From an uncultured delta proteobacterium (GTDB taxonomy: Bacteria > Myxococcota > Myxococcia > Myxococcales > Myxococcaceae), in assembly GCA_963776345.1 (NCBI GenBank), contig CAVZMH010000002.1:46604-110603 (forward strand): 64,000 nt of DNA, written 5' to 3'. The notes beneath the pieces were generated by a model that searched no databases, was not told where the DNA came from, and saw only the letters and a program-made list of their open reading frames with translations. Numbering within the stretch: the first letter of the stretch is position 1; every line of letters starts with the position of its first letter. Positions 4,734 through 14,513 of this stretch are shown piece by piece. Position numbers and translations under genes: made by a program.

Positions 4734-7700
4734 GTGGTCTCCAGCCTCCTTCTCTCGGCCTTCCTCGCCGCAGCGTCCGCTCCGCCTCCCGTCGCCGACC
4801 CGCTCCCCGCCGAGGCCCAGCGCCGCGCAAACGAGGCGCTCGCCCAGTCCCGCTCGGTGCGCGGCGCCGCCGCGCTGATCCGGCTTCGCGGGCTCCGGGA
4901 CGACCTCGCCGACCCGCGCCCGGTCGACACCACGCTCGCCCGCATCGCCGCCGACGGCCGCGCCGAGCCCTTCACCCGCACCCTGGCCCGTCAGCTCCTG
5001 GCGGACATCGACGTCTTGCAGGGTCGGGTGGACGCGGCAGAGCGCCGCCTGCACGCGCTCGGGTACCTGCAGGACGTCTACGTCCTCGGCGGCTTCGAGA
5101 ACGAGGGCAAGACGGGCTGCGACACCGACTTCGGGCCGGAGGCGACGCTCGACCTGGACGCCTCGCTCCAGGCCAAGGGCCACCTCGCCCGCTGGCGGAA
5201 GGCGCCGGCGCGCTCGCTCGACGGCGGGATCGACCTCGGCGCCATGGTTCGCCCCTCCCGGGGCGTCGTGGCCTACGTGCTCGCGCTGCTGGACGAGCCG
5301 GCGCCCCGCCGCACCGTCCTCGCGCTCGGCACCTCCGGCGGGTTCCGCCTCTGGGTGAACGGCGAGAAGGCGGCCAGCGGCGACGCCTACCACCCCGCCC
5401 GGCCGGACCAGGACCGCGTCTCGGTGCAGCTCCGTGCCGGGGTGAACCGAGTGCTGCTCAAGGTCTGTCACGAGGACAGCGGCGTGCTCGGCGCCTACCT
5501 CCGCGACGAGTCCGCGCGCGCCCGGGCGGTGACTCCCGGAACGCTCCCCGCGCTCCCCTCCGGCCCGGCGGTCTCGGTCAGCAAGCTCCCGACGCTGAGA
5601 AGCGCGCTGGAGGCCGAGGTGGCCCGGCGTCCGGACGATGGCCGGCTACGGGCCGACCTCGGCCAGGTGCTGGAGGCGACGCAGTCCTTCGAGGCGCGCG
5701 ACCACGCCGACACCGTGGCCGCAGACCGGGCCGCGGCGGATGCCGCACGCCACGGCCATCCGGACCCGCGCATCGAGCTGCTCGCCGCCCGGCTCCAGCA
5801 CGACGACAACCTCCGCCGCCGGCATCTCGAGACGGCGCTCGCCGCAGCCCCGGATCTGCTCGAGGCGCGGCTGATGCTCGCCCGCGCCGAGCTCGCCCAG
5901 GGGCACCCGGAGCGGGTGCTCACCCTGCTCCAGCCGGTGGTGCAGCGGTGGAAGGCCTTCGTCCCCGCGCAGGTCCTCCTCGCGCGCGCCGAGGACGACC
6001 TCGGCGACGGCGTCTCCGCCACCCGGCGCATCGAGGCCCTTCCGGCCTCGGCCTGGCGCGTCCCGGAGGCGGGCCGGGAGCGAGTGCGCAGCGCGCGGCG
6101 CCTCGACCGATCCGACGAGGCCCTGGGGCGACTCCGCAGCGTGCTCGAGGCGCGTCCGGGAGACGGCGCGAGCCTCTCGCTCCTCGCGGAGATGCTGGCC
6201 GATCGCGGGGACGTGGCCGGCGCCGCCGACGCGCTCCGGAAGGCGCTCCGGCTGTCGCCCACCAGCAACGACGTCCGCCTGCGCCTCGCCGAGCTCCTCG
6301 CCTCCAACGGACGGCTGGACGAGGGGCTGGCGCTGTTCTCCGAGGCCGAGACGCTCTGCCCCGACGAGCCCGAGGTGTTCGAGCGCAAGGGCCGCGCCCT
6401 GCTCTACGCCGGCCGGAAGGCCGCCGCGCTCGAGGCGCTGGAGCGCTCGCTGGTGCTCCGTCCCCAGAACCCCGGGCTCCGCGATGCGGTCCGGGCGCTC
6501 CGGGGGAGCGAGACCTCCGCCGCGACCACCGACGCCATCGACGTCCGGCCGCTGGTCGCGGAGGCGGACAGCTACGCCGAGGACGCGGTGACGCTCGCCG
6601 ACGTCACCCGGGTGCGCGTGCAGCGGAGCGGGCTCTCCAGCCGCTTCCACCAGCTGGCGGTGAAGGTCTACACCCGCCGCGGGGTGGACGCGTTCCGGAG
6701 CTACCCCATCACCTACAGCCCGAGCCGCGAGGAGGTGCGCATCCTCCGCGCGCGCATCACCAAGCCGGACGGCTCGCTGGTGGAGAGCTTCGGGGACACC
6801 AACCGCAGCCTGAACGAGCCCTGGTCCGGGATGTACTACGACGCGCAGGCCAAGATGCTCACCTTCCCGGGACTCGCCCCAGGGGACCTGCTCGAGCTGC
6901 AGTACCGGGTCGAGGACACCGCGAGCGACAACCTCCTCTCCGACTACTGGGGGGACCTCGCGTACGTGCAGGGCATCACTCCGAAGCTCCGCTGGGAGTA
7001 CGTGGTCGACATGCCGGCAGGGCGCGCCCTGTACTGGAACGAGAAGACGCTGGGCGCCGGAGTCAGCGCCCGCCGCGAGCCCGCCACCGACGGCCGGGTG
7101 CTCTACCGCTTCGAGGCCAAACGCGTCTCACGGGTCACGCCCGAGCCGGGCATGCCGGGGTGGTCCGAGGTCGCCGCCACGCTCCACGTCTCGACCTACC
7201 GGACGTGGGAGGAGGTGGGGCGGTACTACTGGAGCCTGATCCGCGACCAGCTGGTGCCCGACGACAGCATCCGCCGCGCCGCCGAGGGCGCGCTGGGGGG
7301 CGTGGACCGGAAGGACACCCGGGCGGTGGTGCGCGCGCTCTACGAGTACGTGGTGAAGAACACCCGCTACGTGGCGCTGGAGTTCGGGATCCACGGATAC
7401 AAGCCATACCGCGTGGACCGGGTGCTGGCGCGGCGCTTCGGCGACTGCAAGGACAAGGCGTCGCTCCTGCACGCGCTCCTCGAGGTCTCCGGGGTGGACA
7501 GCCGCATCGTCCTGCTCCGGATGCGCCAGCTCGGCGCCGTCCCGCCCGAGCCCGCCTCGCTCGCCGTCTTCAACCACGCCATCGTCTACGTGCCGTCGCT
7601 CGACTGGTACCTGGACGGCACCGCCGAGTTCCACGGCGCGACCGAGCTGCCCATCCCCGACCGCCGGGCGAGCGTGCTGATCGTCGAGCCCGACGGGAAG

Positions 7701-8444
7701 AGCCGCTTCACCGTCACCCCCGAGGCCCGGCCGGAGGACAACGTCACCGACGTGCAGCTCGACCTGGCGCTCCGGCCCGGCGGCGCCGCCGAGGTGAAGG
7801 GCGAGAGCCGGGTGCGCGGGAGCGCCGCCCCCGAGTACCGCCGCAGCTACCAGTCCGCAGCCACGCGCCGCACCACCTTCGAGCAGGGCTGGGCCCAGAC
7901 CTTTCCGGGCCTGAGCGTGGACAAGGTGTCGATCAGCGACCTGAACCGGCTCGACCAGGACGTGGCGCTCGACTACGAGCTGAGCATCCCGCGCTACGCC
8001 GAGGCGGGCGGGGATACGCTGCGCTTCCTGCCCTTCGGCAGCCGCCGCGGCTACGTCGAGACGTACGCCGGGCTCACCGAGCGCCGGGGCGACCTGGTCC
8101 TCGACGGACCCAGCGTGAGCCGCTTCACCTTCCGCTACCGGCTTCCGCCGGGGTGGAGCGTGGACGCCCTGCCGCCCGACGTCACCACCACCACCGGCTT
8201 CGGGCGCCTGTCGCTGGTCTACGTCGTGGAGCAGGGCCTGCTGGTCTGCCGGGGCGAGCTGGTGTTCACCCGGGACCGCGTCTCGGCCAGCGAGTATCCG
8301 GCGTTTCGCGCCTTCGTCGCCCAGGTGGACCAGGCGTTCGCCCGGAAGGTGCTGGTCCGGGGCCCGAGGAAGTCCATCCAGCCGCAGCGGGCCACGCGCC
8401 CGTCCGCCGGCGGCGCGCCGCTCGCCCTCGCGGCCACCCCATGA
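4734..8444 (+). CDS. Secreted TPR + DUF3857 + transglutaminase-like domain protein
   Basis: Signal peptide and TPR-like helices. Transglutaminase-like triad motifs GDCKDKA, FNHAI and YLD; RYVALEFG. Confidence 0.88.
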   Translation: MVSSLLLSAFLAAASAPPPVADPLPAEAQRRANEALAQSRSVRGAAALIRLRGLRDDLADPRPVDTTLARIAADGRAEPFTRTLARQLLADIDVLQGRVDAAERRLHALGYLQDVYVLGGFENEGKTGCDTDFGPEATLDLDASLQAKGHLARWRKAPARSLDGGIDLGAMVRPSRGVVAYVLALLDEPAPRRTVLALGTSGGFRLWVNGEKAASGDAYHPARPDQDRVSVQLRAGVNRVLLKVCHEDSGVLGAYLRDESARARAVTPGTLPALPSGPAVSVSKLPTLRSALEAEVARRPDDGRLRADLGQVLEATQSFEARDHADTVAADRAAADAARHGHPDPRIELLAARLQHDDNLRRRHLETALAAAPDLLEARLMLARAELAQGHPERVLTLLQPVVQRWKAFVPAQVLLARAEDDLGDGVSATRRIEALPASAWRVPEAGRERVRSARRLDRSDEALGRLRSVLEARPGDGASLSLLAEMLADRGDVAGAADALRKALRLSPTSNDVRLRLAELLASNGRLDEGLALFSEAETLCPDEPEVFERKGRALLYAGRKAAALEALERSLVLRPQNPGLRDAVRALRGSETSAATTDAIDVRPLVAEADSYAEDAVTLADVTRVRVQRSGLSSRFHQLAVKVYTRRGVDAFRSYPITYSPSREEVRILRARITKPDGSLVESFGDTNRSLNEPWSGMYYDAQAKMLTFPGLAPGDLLELQYRVEDTASDNLLSDYWGDLAYVQGITPKLRWEYVVDMPAGRALYWNEKTLGAGVSARREPATDGRVLYRFEAKRVSRVTPEPGMPGWSEVAATLHVSTYRTWEEVGRYYWSLIRDQLVPDDSIRRAAEGALGGVDRKDTRAVVRALYEYVVKNTRYVALEFGIHGYKPYRVDRVLARRFGDCKDKASLLHALLEVSGVDSRIVLLRMRQLGAVPPEPASLAVFNHAIVYVPSLDWYLDGTAEFHGATELPIPDRRASVLIVEPDGKSRFTVTPEARPEDNVTDVQLDLALRPGGAAEVKGESRVRGSAAPEYRRSYQSAATRRTTFEQGWAQTFPGLSVDKVSISDLNRLDQDVALDYELSIPRYAEAGGDTLRFLPFGSRRGYVETYAGLTERRGDLVLDGPSVSRFTFRYRLPPGWSVDALPPDVTTTTGFGRLSLVYVVEQGLLVCRGELVFTRDRVSASEYPAFRAFVAQVDQAFARKVLVRGPRKSIQPQRATRPSAGGAPLALAATP

Positions 8445-9642: not shown

Positions 9643-10896
9643 CTACTCGGTGCGCATGGCCTCGACGGGGTCCAGCCGCGCCGCCCGGGCCGCCGGGTAG
9701 ATGCCGAACAGGAGCCCCACGCCAGAGCTCATCACCAGCGCGAGCATCACCGCCCAGGTCGGGACGGAGGTGGGAAAGCTGAACGCCCAGCGGGCGAGGA
9801 AGGCCACCAGGCCGCCTCCCAGCACGCCCAGCACCCCCCCCACCAGCGAGAGCATGATCGCCTCGGTCGCAAACTGGCCGAGGATGCGGTGCCGCCGCGC
9901 CCCGAGCGCCTTCCGGACCCCGATCTCCTGGGTCCGCTCGGTGACCGAGACCAGCATGATGTTGAGGATGCCGATCCCGCCCACGATGAGCGACAGGAGG
10001 CACACCCCGAAGCTCGCCGCGGTCACCACCGAGGAGATCTGGTTGAAGGCCTGGGTGGCCGACTCGTTGGAGAAGATGAAGAAGTCGTCCTCCTGCTCGG
10101 GCTTGAGGTTGTGGCGCCGGCGCATGAGCTGCCGCACCTCCTCCATCGCCCGGGGCAGGAGCTCGGTCGAGACCGCCTGCATGCTGATGTTCAGCGACCG
10201 GTTCTTCCCCCACAGCTGGAAGAAGGCGTTGACCGGGATCACCACCACGTCGTCCTGCTGGAAGCCGCCGACGAAGGCTCCCTTGCGCTTGATGAGGCCG
10301 ATGACCCGGAAGGGTCGGGTGCGGATCCGGACCTCCTGACCGATGGGATCCACCTGGGGGAAGAGCACCTCGGCCACGTTCGACCCGAGCACGACCAGGC
10401 GCTCTCCGTCGGCGACCTCCTTCACGTTGAAGGAGCGCCCGGAGGCGATGTCCATGGCGTTGGTGAGGAAGAAGTCGGCGGTGCCGCCGGCGATCTGGAT
10501 GTTGGGCCGCGTCTCGTAGCGGTCGGTGGAGACCTTCACCCCGAAGTCCCAGGCCTCGCCGGTGGTGGCGATGACGTCCGGGAGCCGGCGCTCGATGTCG
10601 TCCCGGTCCTCGATGGTGAGGTTGGGCCTCTTCGAGAGGCGATCGAAGTCGAAGTTACCGAAACCATTGGGGAACTTCTGGATCTGGAACCCGTTGGACC
10701 CGAGGCCGGTCAGGTCCTCGTCGACCTTGTTCCGCAGCCCCTCGAGCAGGGCCATCATCGAGACCACGGTGGCCGCCCCGATGACGATGCCCAGCAAGGT
10801 CAGCAGCGAGCGGAGCCGGTGTCCCCAGAACGTGGAGAACGCCAGCCGGAAGTTGTCGATCAGCGCGCGCACCCACAGTGCCTGACGGCCCGTCAT
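9643..10896 (-). CDS. ABC transporter permease, MacB/FtsX family
   Basis: RSLLTLLGIVIG, VGGIGILNIMLVSVTERTQEIGVRKALGA, GIYPAARAARLDPVEAMR. Start is ATG 10896 or 10905. Confidence 0.93.
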   Translation of the reverse strand: MTGRQALWVRALIDNFRLAFSTFWGHRLRSLLTLLGIVIGAATVVSMMALLEGLRNKVDEDLTGLGSNGFQIQKFPNGFGNFDFDRLSKRPNLTIEDRDDIERRLPDVIATTGEAWDFGVKVSTDRYETRPNIQIAGGTADFFLTNAMDIASGRSFNVKEVADGERLVVLGSNVAEVLFPQVDPIGQEVRIRTRPFRVIGLIKRKGAFVGGFQQDDVVVIPVNAFFQLWGKNRSLNISMQAVSTELLPRAMEEVRQLMRRRHNLKPEQEDDFFIFSNESATQAFNQISSVVTAASFGVCLLSLIVGGIGILNIMLVSVTERTQEIGVRKALGARRHRILGQFATEAIMLSLVGGVLGVLGGGLVAFLARWAFSFPTSVPTWAVMLALVMSSGVGLLFGIYPAARAARLDPVEAMRTE

Positions 10897-10964
10897 GTCC
10901 CCCATTGCAGCAGATCCCTGCACCGGGCGCGCGGCTGGCCGGGCGGGAGAGCCCGGAGGGCGCC

Positions 10965-11939
10965 CTACCTCCCGAAGGCGAGCGAGGCGCTGGTCCTCTC
11001 GGCCGGCACCCAGCGCTGCAGCGGATAGCCCTCGGACACCCACGCGGCGTAGCCGCCCTCCAGGGGCCGGACCCGGTCGATGCCTCGTCGCTTCAGCCGG
11101 AGCGCCACCCGGGCGCTCGTCCACTCATCGGGTCAACTGCAGAAGAGGACCACCGGGCGGCTGCGGGCAATCTCCCCGTGCCGCCGGTCCAGCTCGTCCG
11201 GCGAGATGTGGAGCGCACCCGGCAGCGTGCTGCCCGACTCCTCCAGCTCGCGCCGGTGCCGCAGGTCCACCAGCACCAGGTCCTCGCCCCCGTCGAGCAG
11301 CCGCTTCAGCTCGACGGGCGACAGCCGCGCCACCCGGAGCGCGGTCCGGAAGCGCAACCGCTGGAGGAACTTCCACCCGAGGTACAGGGCGAACCCCGCG
11401 GCGAGGACGCCCGCCGCCGAGCCCGCGTAGGCCATCGCCAGCTCGAGCGCGCGGAAGAACGGGCCACCCGCGAGCCAGCCCAGGCCCACGAACGTCGTCG
11501 CCCAGAAGAAGTCCCCCATCGCGTCCAGCCCCAGGAAGCGCCGGAGCCGCATCCCCGACATCCCGGCCAGCGGCGGCGCGAGGGTGGTCAGCCCCGGGAT
11601 GAAGGGGGCGATCACCAGCGCCCGCGCGCCGTAGCGGGTGAACGCGTTCTCGGTCCGCTGCACGCAGCTGTCGGGCTCGAGCGAGACGCGGCAGATCAGC
11701 CGCAGCACGCGGTTGCCCCAGCGACGGCCGGCGAGGAACCAGGCCGAGTGCCCCAGCGACGCCGCCACCGTGGCGAGGACGATCGGCACCGCGAGCGTCC
11801 CCTGACCGAGCCGCGCCAGGGCCCCCGAGGCGATGAGCCAGGGCGTGCACGGGATGGGCACCCCGCCCTGCTCGAGGAGCACGCTCGCGAAGACCAGCAG
11901 CGGTCCGTACGTCTGGAGGAACTCGATGCTGGCGTTCAC
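10965..11939 (-). CDS. DedA (VTT/SNARE-associated) + rhodanese fusion, predicted selenoprotein (Sec at 11135-11133)
   Basis: DedA motifs LEQGGVPIP and FIPGLTTLAPPLAG. The rhodanese domain continues in frame through TGA: VVLFCS-U-PDEWTSARVALRLKRRGIDRVRPLEGGYAAW...GR*, with TAG at 10967-10965. GTG 11939 has a GGAGGT RBS. Confidence 0.88.
11100..11118 (-). promoter_or_regulatory. Candidate SECIS of DedA-rhodanese
   Basis: Perfect 7-bp stem GAGCGCC-CGGGU-GGCGCUC starting 14 nt after the UGA. Confidence 0.75.
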
Positions 11940-12019
11940 GGCGGGTGGAACCTCCGGCGGCACCCGCGGGCGGGTGCAGAGCGGCGTGTGTAGCCGGACC
12001 GGCGCCCCACCGCCACCGT

Positions 12020-12062: not shown

Positions 12063-12290
12063 CTAGTTGGGGCGGGCCGACGGAGGCTGCCCGATCAGGT
12101 GGACCACCTCGTCCACCCGGACCGGCAGCTTTCCGCCCTTCCGCTCCAGGGCGAGCGAGAGCTTCCGGTGGTCGGACCGCGTCAGCCGCCGGTCGAGCAC
12201 CACGTCCACCATGTACTCGAGCGAGTCGACGCCGAGCACCATCCCCACGCTGAACAGCATCAGCTCATCCGGGTCCACGTAGGCCGACAT
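12063..12290 (-). CDS. Small hypothetical protein
   Basis: MSAYVDPDELMLFSVGMVLGVDSLEYMVDVVLDRR...; protein-like composition, fills an intergenic gap. Confidence 0.65.
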   Translation of the reverse strand: MSAYVDPDELMLFSVGMVLGVDSLEYMVDVVLDRRLTRSDHRKLSLALERKGGKLPVRVDEVVHLIGQPPSARPN

Positions 12291-12377
12291 GGCACCTGGA
12301 AGCCTTTGCAAGGAAGGATCCGACGGGACGCCGCCCCGGGAAGCGGGGGGCGGCCAGACCTGTTAGGGGTCCCAACC

Positions 12378-14513
12378 GTGCTTCCTGGCTTGCTCCTTTC
12401 CGTGCTCGTGGCCGCTGGCCCGGCACCCTCTCCGACCGCGAGCGGGGCCGTCCACGAGGGCAAGCCGAGGGTGCATGCGACCCTGGTCTCCGAGCTGACC
12501 CAGGTGGAGCCGGGCGGCGCGTTCCGGCTCGGGGTGCAGCTCCGGATGGCGCCCGGGTGGTACGTCTACTGGAAGAATCCGGGCGAGGCGGGACTCCCGA
12601 GCGAGGTGGTCTGGGACGCGCCCCGCGTCACGGTGGGGCCACTCACCTGGCCTGCGCCGGAGGTGCACCGGAGCCCCGACGGCACCATCACCAGCTACGG
12701 CTATGGCGGGGAGGTGGTGCTCTTCGCCACCGCCCGCGCGCAGCCCGAGGTGCAGCCGCCGCTGACGGTGGTGGCCACCGCCGAGGTGCTGGTCTGCCAG
12801 GTGCAGTGCATCCCGGCCCGCTTCGAGCTCACCCGCGTGCTCGGGGTCGGTCCCCGGCAGGCCGATGCGGCGGGCGCGGCGCTCCTCGAGGCCGCGGCGG
12901 CTCGCGTGCCCCGCCCCCCGGCCGCCGCGGGGCTGCGGGTGGCCATCCGGCGGACCACCGCCTTCGTGCCCGGCCAGCCGTTCGAGGGCGAGCTGACGGT
13001 GGAGCGCGCCGACGGAAGCCCCGAGCCGCTCGCCGACGCCGACGCCTTCGTCCCGGAGCGGCTCCCCGGAGTCGTCTCGGTCACGGGCATCGCCGAGGGG
13101 CCCGGCCGGCTCCGGCTGTGGGGGAAGGCCGCCGCCGACGCGCCGGCCCCGCCGTCGCGGATGGCCGGGGTGGTCACCCTCGCCGGCGGCGGCGCCATCG
13201 AGGTGAGCGGGCCGTTCGAGCTCCCGCCCGGCCTCGCTCCCCGGCCCGCCGCCGCGACGCCGCCGGTCGCGGCGCGGACGCCGGGGTTGCCGTGGGTGCT
13301 GCTGCTCGCCTTCCTCGGCGGCGTGCTCCTCAACGCCATGCCCTGCGTCTTCCCGGTGCTGGCGCTGAAGGCGTACGGGTTCGCGCGCACCGTCCAAGCC
13401 GACCACGGCTCGGTGCGAAGGCACGCGCTGGCGTACACCGGAGGAATCCTCGCCTCGCTGCTGGTCCTCGCCGTGGCGGTGCTGGGCCTCCGCGCCGCGG
13501 GCCACGCCGTCGGCTGGGGCTTTCAGTTCCAGGAGCCGCTCTTCGTCGCCGTCCTCTCCGGGGTGGTGCTCCTGTTCGCCCTCAACCTGCTCGGGGTGTT
13601 CGAGCTCACGCCGCCGAGCCACGGCACCGGGTCTCTGGTGGCGGCGGTGGATCACTCCCACGGCCCGCTCCGGAGCGCGGGCGAGGGCGTGCTCGCGGTG
13701 GTGCTCGCCACGCCCTGCTCCGCGCCGCTGCTCGGGACGGCGGTGGGCTTCGCCTTCGCGGCCAGCGCGCCGGTGGTCCTCGCCGTCTTCGCCGCGGTGG
13801 GCCTCGGCCTCGCCGCGCCCTTCTGCGCGCTGGTGCTGGTGCCGGGGCTCCGGACCCGGCTGCCGCGGCCGGGCGCATGGATGGAGCGCGGCAAGCAGCT
13901 CCTCGGCTTCGCGCTGCTCGGCACCGGGGTGTGGCTCGCGGGCATCCTCGGGGCGCTCGCCGGGGTGGACGGGGTGGTGCGGCTGCTCGCCTTCCTGGTG
14001 GTGGTCGCGCTCGCCGCCTGGGCCTGGGGCGCGTGGCGCCGCGGGCCGGTGCTCGCCGCGGGGCTGGCCCTGGTGCTGGTGACCGGCTTCCTGGCGCTGC
14101 GCTTCGGCGCGGGGCCGGCGTCGGCGGTCGGGCGCGAGGCCTGGAGCGACGAGGCCGTGGCCAGGAGCCTCGCCCAGGGCCGGCCGGTGCTGGTCGACTT
14201 CACCGCGGAGTGGTGCCTGAGCTGCAAGTTCAACGAGCGCACCGTGCTCGCCTCCGAGCCGGTGCGGTCGGCGCTGGCCCGCACCCGGACCCAGCTGCTG
14301 GTGGCCGACTGGACGCGCCGCGACGCCGGCATCGCCCGCCGTCTTGCCGCGCACGGGCGGGCCGGCGTCCCGATGTACCTGGTCTACTCGCCGGCGCACC
14401 CCGACCAGCCCGAGGTGCTGCCCGAGCTCCTCACCGTGGACCTGGTGGTCTCCGCGCTGGAGCGGGCCTCAACCGGACAGGGCGCGCTCGGGCTCTCCTC
14501 GTCCCCGAGGTGA
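12378..14513 (+). CDS. dsbD: Protein-disulfide reductase, DsbD family
   Basis: N-domain GWYVYWKNPGEAG...CQVQC; TM domain LLNAMPCVFPVL and ATPCSAP; thioredoxin domain DFTAEWCLSCK. Confidence 0.92.
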   Translation: MLPGLLLSVLVAAGPAPSPTASGAVHEGKPRVHATLVSELTQVEPGGAFRLGVQLRMAPGWYVYWKNPGEAGLPSEVVWDAPRVTVGPLTWPAPEVHRSPDGTITSYGYGGEVVLFATARAQPEVQPPLTVVATAEVLVCQVQCIPARFELTRVLGVGPRQADAAGAALLEAAAARVPRPPAAAGLRVAIRRTTAFVPGQPFEGELTVERADGSPEPLADADAFVPERLPGVVSVTGIAEGPGRLRLWGKAAADAPAPPSRMAGVVTLAGGGAIEVSGPFELPPGLAPRPAAATPPVAARTPGLPWVLLLAFLGGVLLNAMPCVFPVLALKAYGFARTVQADHGSVRRHALAYTGGILASLLVLAVAVLGLRAAGHAVGWGFQFQEPLFVAVLSGVVLLFALNLLGVFELTPPSHGTGSLVAAVDHSHGPLRSAGEGVLAVVLATPCSAPLLGTAVGFAFAASAPVVLAVFAAVGLGLAAPFCALVLVPGLRTRLPRPGAWMERGKQLLGFALLGTGVWLAGILGALAGVDGVVRLLAFLVVVALAAWAWGAWRRGPVLAAGLALVLVTGFLALRFGAGPASAVGREAWSDEAVARSLAQGRPVLVDFTAEWCLSCKFNERTVLASEPVRSALARTRTQLLVADWTRRDAGIARRLAAHGRAGVPMYLVYSPAHPDQPEVLPELLTVDLVVSALERASTGQGALGLSSSPR

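Follow-up and report, generated by a model that had tools for sequence, protein, structure and literature searches.

A predicted selenocysteine-containing DedA-rhodanese membrane fusion that is widespread in bacteria and routinely truncated in databases

We identified a DedA(VTT)-rhodanese fusion gene (10965..11939, reverse strand; 324 codons, GTG start, TAG stop) in the window, i.e., the whole stretch of 64,000 nucleotides analysed here, that almost certainly encodes a 324-residue inner-membrane selenoprotein with the UGA at codon 269 read as selenocysteine (Sec). This integral-membrane selenoprotein is widespread and routinely truncated in databases. Among the best 120 of 1,020 database matches, 83 end directly before column 269, 35 extend to full length and carry Cys there, and two fit neither description, in line with the original prediction that annotation cuts the protein short and that the UGA occupies a Cys position; the motif given there for the Cys form, C-x-C-P-N-E, was correct for most of the 35 full-length Cys matches. 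The best 150 cluster representatives (50% identity) comprised 99 full-length sequences, 11 partial ones and 40 that end at C-x, for which Sec was deduced from the truncation of the protein. What is new, according to the catalogues examined, is a known Sec-rhodanese domain within an uncatalogued membrane fusion. Further new features, as read from the alignments, are a near-invariant Cys pair in the DedA domain, missing flippase arginines and a rhodanese loop that is acidic rather than basic. The original prediction of a rhodanese selenoprotein stands, having missed that the C-x-U domain is already catalogued and that DedA carries a Cys pair.

Reading frame, host machinery and constraint

Translation with table 11 halts after ...VVLFCS at the one in-frame TGA (11133..11135, reverse strand; motif C-S-U-P-D-E). 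Beyond it, 55 open codons (PDEWTSARVALRL...RVRPLEGGYAAW...; 10968..11132, reverse strand) continue to the TAG and are left out by standard gene calling. As originally proposed, they complete a rhodanese fold: the read-through protein has a VTT/DedA domain (residues 29-155) and a rhodanese-like domain (residues 207-302; 11034..11321, reverse strand; PF00581), both above the Pfam cut-off. The VTT/DedA score of 56.1 bits (cut-off 33.9) places the protein in PF09335 and, together with the hydropathy profile, the membrane domain was delimited to residues 1-190 (11370..11939, reverse strand). The GTG start at 11939 agrees with the truncated database forms, 81 of 83 of which have 267-268 aa or near, and lies 11 nt 3' of GGAGG (11951..11955, reverse strand), a likely ribosome-binding site; no promoter-like site was found for the gene. 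Its nearest named relatives share 79-84% identity and are listed as Myxococcaceae or delta proteobacterium. Codon 269 is covered by contigs from four public DNA runs, one of which is possibly the source sample, and the table of kinds of change for these assembled contigs held none that gives TGC or TGT. An assembly error at the TGA is unlikely.

The host genome contains a tRNA-Sec (70.3 bits, cut-off 47) and selA, selB and selD, each scoring above cut-off. Host SelD (G000:C20:109736-110665 (+), L018) is itself a selenoprotein with an in-frame TGA (C-A-G-U-A-A-K; U-x-x-K). A second likely hidden selenoprotein of the host, with U-G-V-C and a SECIS-like hairpin, was seen at a TGA on another contig (G000:C15, 34867 (-)); we take it to be a TlpA/thioredoxin-like lipoprotein. 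Among 37 Myxococcales genomes tested (36 fusion carriers and one incomplete non-carrier), selA was present in 37 and selB in 35; the search did not find selB in G009 (89% complete). Purifying selection acts on the codons that follow the TGA, with a dN/dS over codons 270-308 of 0.20 in 11 host-genus genes and 0.11 in seven genes of another genus, compared to 0.22 and 0.18 for the DedA domain in the same two sets. None of the four observations that the original prediction had named as contrary to Sec was made, namely TGC or TGT at bases 11133-11135 in the reads, lack of UGA at this column in other genomes, a host devoid of Sec genes, and absence of purifying selection downstream.

The downstream hairpin and alternation of Sec and Cys forms

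A hairpin at 11100..11118 (reverse strand) has a 7-bp Watson-Crick stem (+15..+21 with +27..+33) and a 5-nt loop, C-G-G-G-U; the stem begins 14 nt past the UGA, where a perfect 7-bp hairpin had been predicted, and the loop 21 nt past it. The bacterial SECIS model, as given in the Fig. 2 legend of PMC13188914, has a loop of 3-9 nt, a stem of 4-16 bp, G[G|U] at the first loop positions, a distance of 16-37 nt from the UGA and an energy of <= -7.5 kcal/mol. With a loop of 5 nt, a stem of 7 bp, a distance of 21 nt and -13 to -16 kcal/mol, our hairpin agrees with this consensus model throughout, and it also covaries across TGA loci. Its folding energy was unremarkable for 70% GC DNA (z of +0.82 to -1.13 relative to shuffles in five folded stretches), but its placement is rare: only 500 of the 88,207 TGA triplets of the genome (0.57%) are followed at similar spacing by an unbroken 7-bp stem. 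Because the folding energy is not significant relative to shuffles, the case for a SECIS rests on conservation.

The four apical pairs are kept in 56/56 TGA loci, which comprise 52 fusions and an additional four standalone rhodaneses. Pair +21:+27 is C-G in 43, G-C in 11 and U-A in two of these loci and pair +18:+30 is C-G in 44, G-C in 11 and U-G in one, while the two pairs form in 19 and 16, respectively, of the 50 Cys loci. Three hairpin pairs connect two third-codon positions, and compensatory flips are seen there. In the covariation test, for which 45 of the 56 TGA loci were aligned (45 distinct rows), 33 cells were changed on both sides of a pair versus 10.2 in shuffles (0/500), and the hairpin structure outscored each of the six slid controls; on these 45 rows, pairs with change and further pair types, used as additional measures, did not rise above shuffles. 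Only three of 144 four-fold sites are conserved to >=95% in 33 TGA genes (codons 276, 278 and 279), all of them in the hairpin; the corresponding values in 23 Cys genes are 0.61, 0.77 and 0.38. The loop-forming Arg277 is present in 56/56 TGA loci and always encoded by CGG, CGU or AGG, a codon choice that matches the G[G|U] loop rule, with these codons making up 46% of the other Arg codons in the TGA-locus genes. Cys loci have Arg at 277 in 21/50 and a codon of the CGG/CGU/AGG type in five. Such conservation supports the hairpin as a functional bacterial SECIS. The full 7-bp stem is not universal, because 11 Burkholderiales loci have another lower stem. These Burkholderiales Sec forms (L163, L166, L167, L171, L172, L188, L189, L191, L193, L200 and L202) combine flipped apical pairs and a different lower stem with a shared C-G-U-G-U loop, and thereby offer natural variants for testing which features SelB recognises.

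Column 269 is TGA in 52 and Cys in 50 of 102 DedA-rhodanese fusion loci; every non-TGA locus has TGC or TGT, and neither TAA nor TAG occurs at this column. The 50 Cys loci include 20 from metagenomes. Loci L022-L030 (genomes shared with other loci), the partial loci L057, L110, L116 and L119-L125, and L169 were dropped before counting, and the host DedA paralogue was left out of all counts. TGA forms are spread over four phyla, and Cys and Sec versions of the same fusion alternate across bacteria, which is the Cys/UGA pairing that the original prediction had proposed to look for. A search of 61 relatives gave a full-length match in 16 genomes, with TGA at column 269 in 16/16, and 34 of 301 genomes of a class-wide sample carry the fusion. 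The Myxococcales loci read have TGA in 33/36 and TGC in 3/36. Carriers in the other samples numbered 1/201 Gemmatimonadota, 13/151 Eremiobacterota, 52/301 Burkholderiales and 1/251 Verrucomicrobiota genomes, the last one with the Cys form. The 46 non-Myxococcales loci read have TGA in 19 (Gemmatimonadota, n = 1; Eremiobacterota, n = 7; Burkholderiales, n = 11) and Cys in 27.

Outside the Myxococcales, 18 of 19 TGA carriers had a selA match, compared with 14 of the 26 carriers of Cys forms (Fisher p 0.003, with kin that are not independent). Searches of G937 (L191; TGA and intact hairpin, completeness not given) did not find selA, selB or tRNA-Sec, for which an incomplete bin, a mis-binned contig and a recent loss are candidate explanations. 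A tree of 53 loci, calculated with the SECIS region excluded, has four Sec/Cys changes, three of them forced by well-supported branches, and a FastTree of 143 proteins, on which Sec was deduced from truncation, requires 22; gains and losses alike are counted on both. L179 (G1280) has Cys and no hairpin and its sister L180 (G1294) has TGA and the hairpin (branch support 100). Both genomes have selA and tRNA-Sec, so this switch is gene-specific. A TGA flagged in selA of G1280 turned out to be the terminal stop of that gene.

The TGA could instead be a genuine stop codon, a lesion in a pseudogene or an error of assembly, with the 268-residue protein listed in databases as the product. Under selenium shortage, some ribosomes are expected to terminate at UGA, which we counted in favour of a stop together with G937, the TGA carrier in which Sec machinery was not found. 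This explanation is nevertheless hardly credible, given that the same codon recurs in 52 fusion loci of four phyla and is never TAA or TAG, that a covarying SECIS and sequence under purifying selection follow it, and that four runs are concordant. The host also uses ordinary TGA stops elsewhere, e.g., in the adjoining permease, so its genetic code is not reassigned.

Rhodanese and DedA domains and their genomic surroundings

The active-site loop C267-S-U269-P-D-E-W-T-S275 (11115..11141, reverse strand) is part of the rhodanese loop C267-S-U-P-D-E-W-T-S-A, which has eight residues, two more than the canonical six-residue loop. A conserved acidic residue at 272 (E/D in 92/99 full-length representatives) takes the place of the sulfurtransferase Gly/Arg. 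C267 is present in 102/102 fusion loci, and HMMER places U269 or C267 in the catalytic column, varying with the structure compared; because Sec is used there repeatedly, we regard residue 269 as the reactive one. By sequence profile, the protein shares the rhodanese fold with the single-domain sulfurtransferases GlpE 1gmx, 6mxv, 3iwh and 3tp9. These have the loop C-x-x-G-x-R-S-A, whereas ours is two residues longer and contains two S/Se residues and an acid; our protein thus lacks the six-residue C-x-x-G-x-R/basic loop of the GlpE type, and NF001195 (GlpE) was not among the NCBIfam matches of the full protein.

The best NCBIfam match (E 9e-23) is NF041203 rhodanese_LYCAU, which scores 77.7 for the whole protein and 80.3 for the domain alone against a cut-off of 115 that is reached by 0/61 relatives. 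The NCBI model would not name the fusion, because its score is below this cut-off. NF041203 (representative TKB26178.1) corresponds to the C-x-U rhodanese 'form 3' or COG0607 form 2 in PMC13188914 (Table 1) and PMC9312934, the first of which interprets C-x-U and C-x-x-U motifs as redox motifs. Its members are predicted to have the same fold, loop and Sec position as our protein, with L-Y-C-A-U-P-[NS]-E-x-T-S-A in the published examples compared to L-F-C-S-U-P-D-E-W-T-S-A in ours, in which the NF041203 loop C-x-U-P-x-E-x-[TS]-S-A is present. The members known so far stand alone, are about 130-150 aa long and carry an N-terminal hydrophobic leader, which resembles a signal peptide and suggests export, whereas our domain is not standalone, lies behind a DedA domain and is predicted to be cytoplasmic. 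The rhodanese domain thus appears to work like the NF041203 family without being filed there. Four Myxococcales genomes encode standalone C-T-U rhodaneses (L062, L066, L070 and L074) of 117-126 aa that have no leader peptide and share the same hairpin; at 79-96 bits they are under the NF041203 cut-off and would therefore also be missed.

The C83-x8-C92 dithiol (C-R-x-S-L-E-P-D-S-C; 11664..11693, reverse strand) lies in an Arg-rich extramembrane loop of the DedA domain. It is present in 169/169 near homologues and 40/40 Sec-type representatives, and among the 99 full-length cluster representatives C83 is found in 89 and C92 in 87; E. coli YghB has no Cys at columns 83 and 92. Two segments are rich in Arg/Lys, the C83/C92 loop (7) and the linker to the rhodanese domain (6), and the positive-inside rule places such segments on the cytoplasmic side of the membrane. 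Because their flanking segments are Arg/Lys-rich, both pairs, C83/C92 and C267/U269, should face the cytoplasm.

According to PMC10127716, residues E39, D51, R130 and R136 of YghB are tied to undecaprenyl-phosphate flipping. Our protein shares the DedA core, two re-entrant helices and a Glu at the E39 column (E23) with the E. coli YghB/YqjA and UptA flippases, but has T, P and T at the D51, R130 and R136 columns, and YghB in turn has no rhodanese domain. The first re-entrant helix (11847..11873, reverse strand) carries E23 as well as C31 and T32 in the D51 region, the assignment of T32 to D51 being approximate as it crosses a 3-residue gap. C31, beside the D51 column, is specific to two Myxococcaceae genera (18/52 TGA loci). 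The tip of the second re-entrant helix (11586..11606, reverse strand) lacks the basic residues of R130 and R136 and has P112 and T118 in an ungapped alignment. H64 (11748-11750, reverse strand), the partner of P112, replaces the usual Asp: most of the family has Asp64 and Lys112, 31/33 Myxococcales Sec forms have His64/Pro112, and this position pair is the top coupling in a weak coevolution analysis (222 sequences). Pro112 was rejected as a marker of Sec forms, as it is a Myxococcales trait and 38/40 Sec-type representatives have Lys. No solved DedA structure matching our protein was found.

The same architecture is found in fusions annotated as 'DedA family protein/thiosulfate sulfurtransferase GlpE', e.g., P. 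aeruginosa PA1209. The nearest Cys-form fusions have 42-51% identity to our protein and the same C-x8-C and C-x-C-P-N-E motifs. Ours differs from them by Sec in place of the second loop Cys and by the SECIS, and the Myxococcales clade by His64/Pro112 for Asp/Lys, with two genera adding Cys31. DedA-rhodanese fusions are noted in PMC10127716, which calls their link to UndP 'unclear', and in PMC12893004; the available text of both has no mention of Sec or of the Cys pair in these fusions. Full-text, title and abstract searches found no report of a Sec-containing DedA-rhodanese fusion, and other catalogues may list it. The 119-family selenoprotein table has no DedA or VTT entry in the part of PMC13188914 available, and no DedA/VTT selenoprotein was found in the accessible portions of the BSepDB and SelCysML texts, the BSepDB supplement and four deep-Sep supplements. 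The literature covered for this comparison also included bioRxiv 2020.12.18.423352, PMC13326102, PMC13745706 and PMC12013277.

Among 86 neighbouring ORFs at 30 loci, we found no S/Se metabolism gene, no redox neighbour conserved beyond one genus and no neighbour of any kind kept beyond one or two genera. Divergently upstream in the window lies a full-length DsbD with its N-terminal, membrane and thioredoxin domains (12375-14513 (+)), as it does at three other loci of the genus (L023, L026 and L029); within the 30 loci, it was not seen next to the fusion gene in other genera. A 75-aa ORF with no Pfam match (12063-12290 (-)) is located 350 nt upstream. A MacB/FtsX-type permease (9643-10905 (-)) follows 59 nt downstream and recurs at this place in a second genus (four loci), and a hemerythrin-domain gene is downstream in three other host-genus loci. 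A TPR/DUF3857/transglutaminase-like protein of 1,236 aa (4734-8444 (+)) likewise lies close to the fusion at other loci of this genus.

Candidate functions of the fusion

The comparative evidence strongly supports that SelB binds the hairpin 21 nt downstream and brings Sec-tRNA to UGA269, which yields a C-x-U rhodanese domain joined to a DedA domain. We tentatively propose, at somewhat less than an even chance, that this protein functions as a cytoplasm-facing thiol/selenol relay at the membrane. The U269 selenolate may attack a membrane-associated substrate at a disulfide, at a sulfane bond (polysulfide/persulfide) or at an oxidised sulfur bond, and C267 would resolve the U269 adduct. The C83-x8-C92 dithiol on the same face would be its partner, either regenerating the C-x-U centre or being switched by it, and the DedA part may anchor the enzyme and present or move the substrate, being something other than a standard undecaprenyl-phosphate flippase. 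This reading builds on the read-through signals, the four conserved S/Se residues and the missing flippase residues, and we infer from sequence its sidedness, the contact between the two pairs, the chemistry and the substrate. C83 and C92 covary (rank 11 in the coevolution analysis of 222 sequences). D90-D271 and E88-S275 rank 36 and 46 among noisy pairs, 222 sequences being too weak to call a contact. Loss of the DedA and rhodanese Cys pairs is uncorrelated (76 have both, 9/7 one only and 1 neither; Fisher p = 1), and the rhodanese domain does not need the DedA pair, because standalone C-x-U rhodaneses without DedA exist.

With UGA also read as Sec, the function originally predicted, sulfur or selenium transfer coupled to the transport of selenite, thiosulfate or a related species by DedA, appears rather unlikely. 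It would suit the Cys/Sec in the catalytic loop of a rhodanese fold, and Asp64/Lys112 and Glu23, retained in most of the family, could serve ion-coupled transport. Moreover, a DedA of Cupriavidus metallidurans CH34 has been linked to selenite uptake (cited in PMC8679861 and PMC2744661), and a homologue of the fusion, which may differ from the selenite-linked DedA, is encoded on a replicon of C. metallidurans. Against it, the acidic loop exceeds those of sulfurtransferases by two residues, His64/Pro112 replaces the common pair in 31/33 Myxococcales Sec forms, the Myxococcales Sec forms lack the basic residues of the DedA substrate site, and there are 0 S/Se genes among the 86 neighbours. A membrane thiol/selenol relay would fit better than oxyanion transport.

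Alternatively, C83, C92, C267 and U269, together with E272, might bind a soft metal or metalloid (Cu, Zn, Hg, As(III)) at a joint site through which DedA is loaded or gated. The conservation of four S/Se ligands and of an acid (E/D at 272, 92/99) would be apt for this, Table 1 of PMC13188914 includes Hg-, Cu/Zn- and As-handling selenoproteins, and PMC8679861 links a DedA to indium extrusion. We consider such a site unlikely, as the two Cys/Sec pairs are lost independently and metal-resistance genes do not recur among the neighbours (one AcrB/HlyD pair in 86 ORFs). That the protein is a COG0586-type lipid or lipid-carrier flippase switched by the redox or persulfide state of its rhodanese domain is very unlikely: the family does not retain the YghB residues at the D51 and R136 columns, R130 is Pro in the Myxococcales clade, the UptA models give 35 bits where 250-300 would be needed, and deletion of P. 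aeruginosa PA1209 gave no envelope phenotype in PMC12893004, where redundancy is possible. Such a flippase would agree with the retained E23, with Lys/Arg at the R130 column in most of the family, and with the placement of DedA-rhodanese fusions within COG0586, the undecaprenyl-phosphate flippase subfamily (PMC10127716).

Soil and wetland surveys of selenium use miss the fusion, since public gene calls cut it at residue 268. Beyond the cytoplasm-facing thiol/selenol relay that we prefer, the DedA fold may have been turned into a selenium-driven trans-membrane thiol relay, which we consider quite unlikely. Electrons or sulfane/selenium atoms would then pass from U269/C267 via C83/C92 and C31 to an acceptor in or beyond the membrane, akin to DsbD/CcdA but on an unrelated scaffold. 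If true, redox chemistry would thereby be ascribed to the DedA superfamily for the first time within the literature examined. The predicted selenoprotein gives a handle on why DedA is fused to rhodanese, with the conserved Cys pair as a direct candidate partner.
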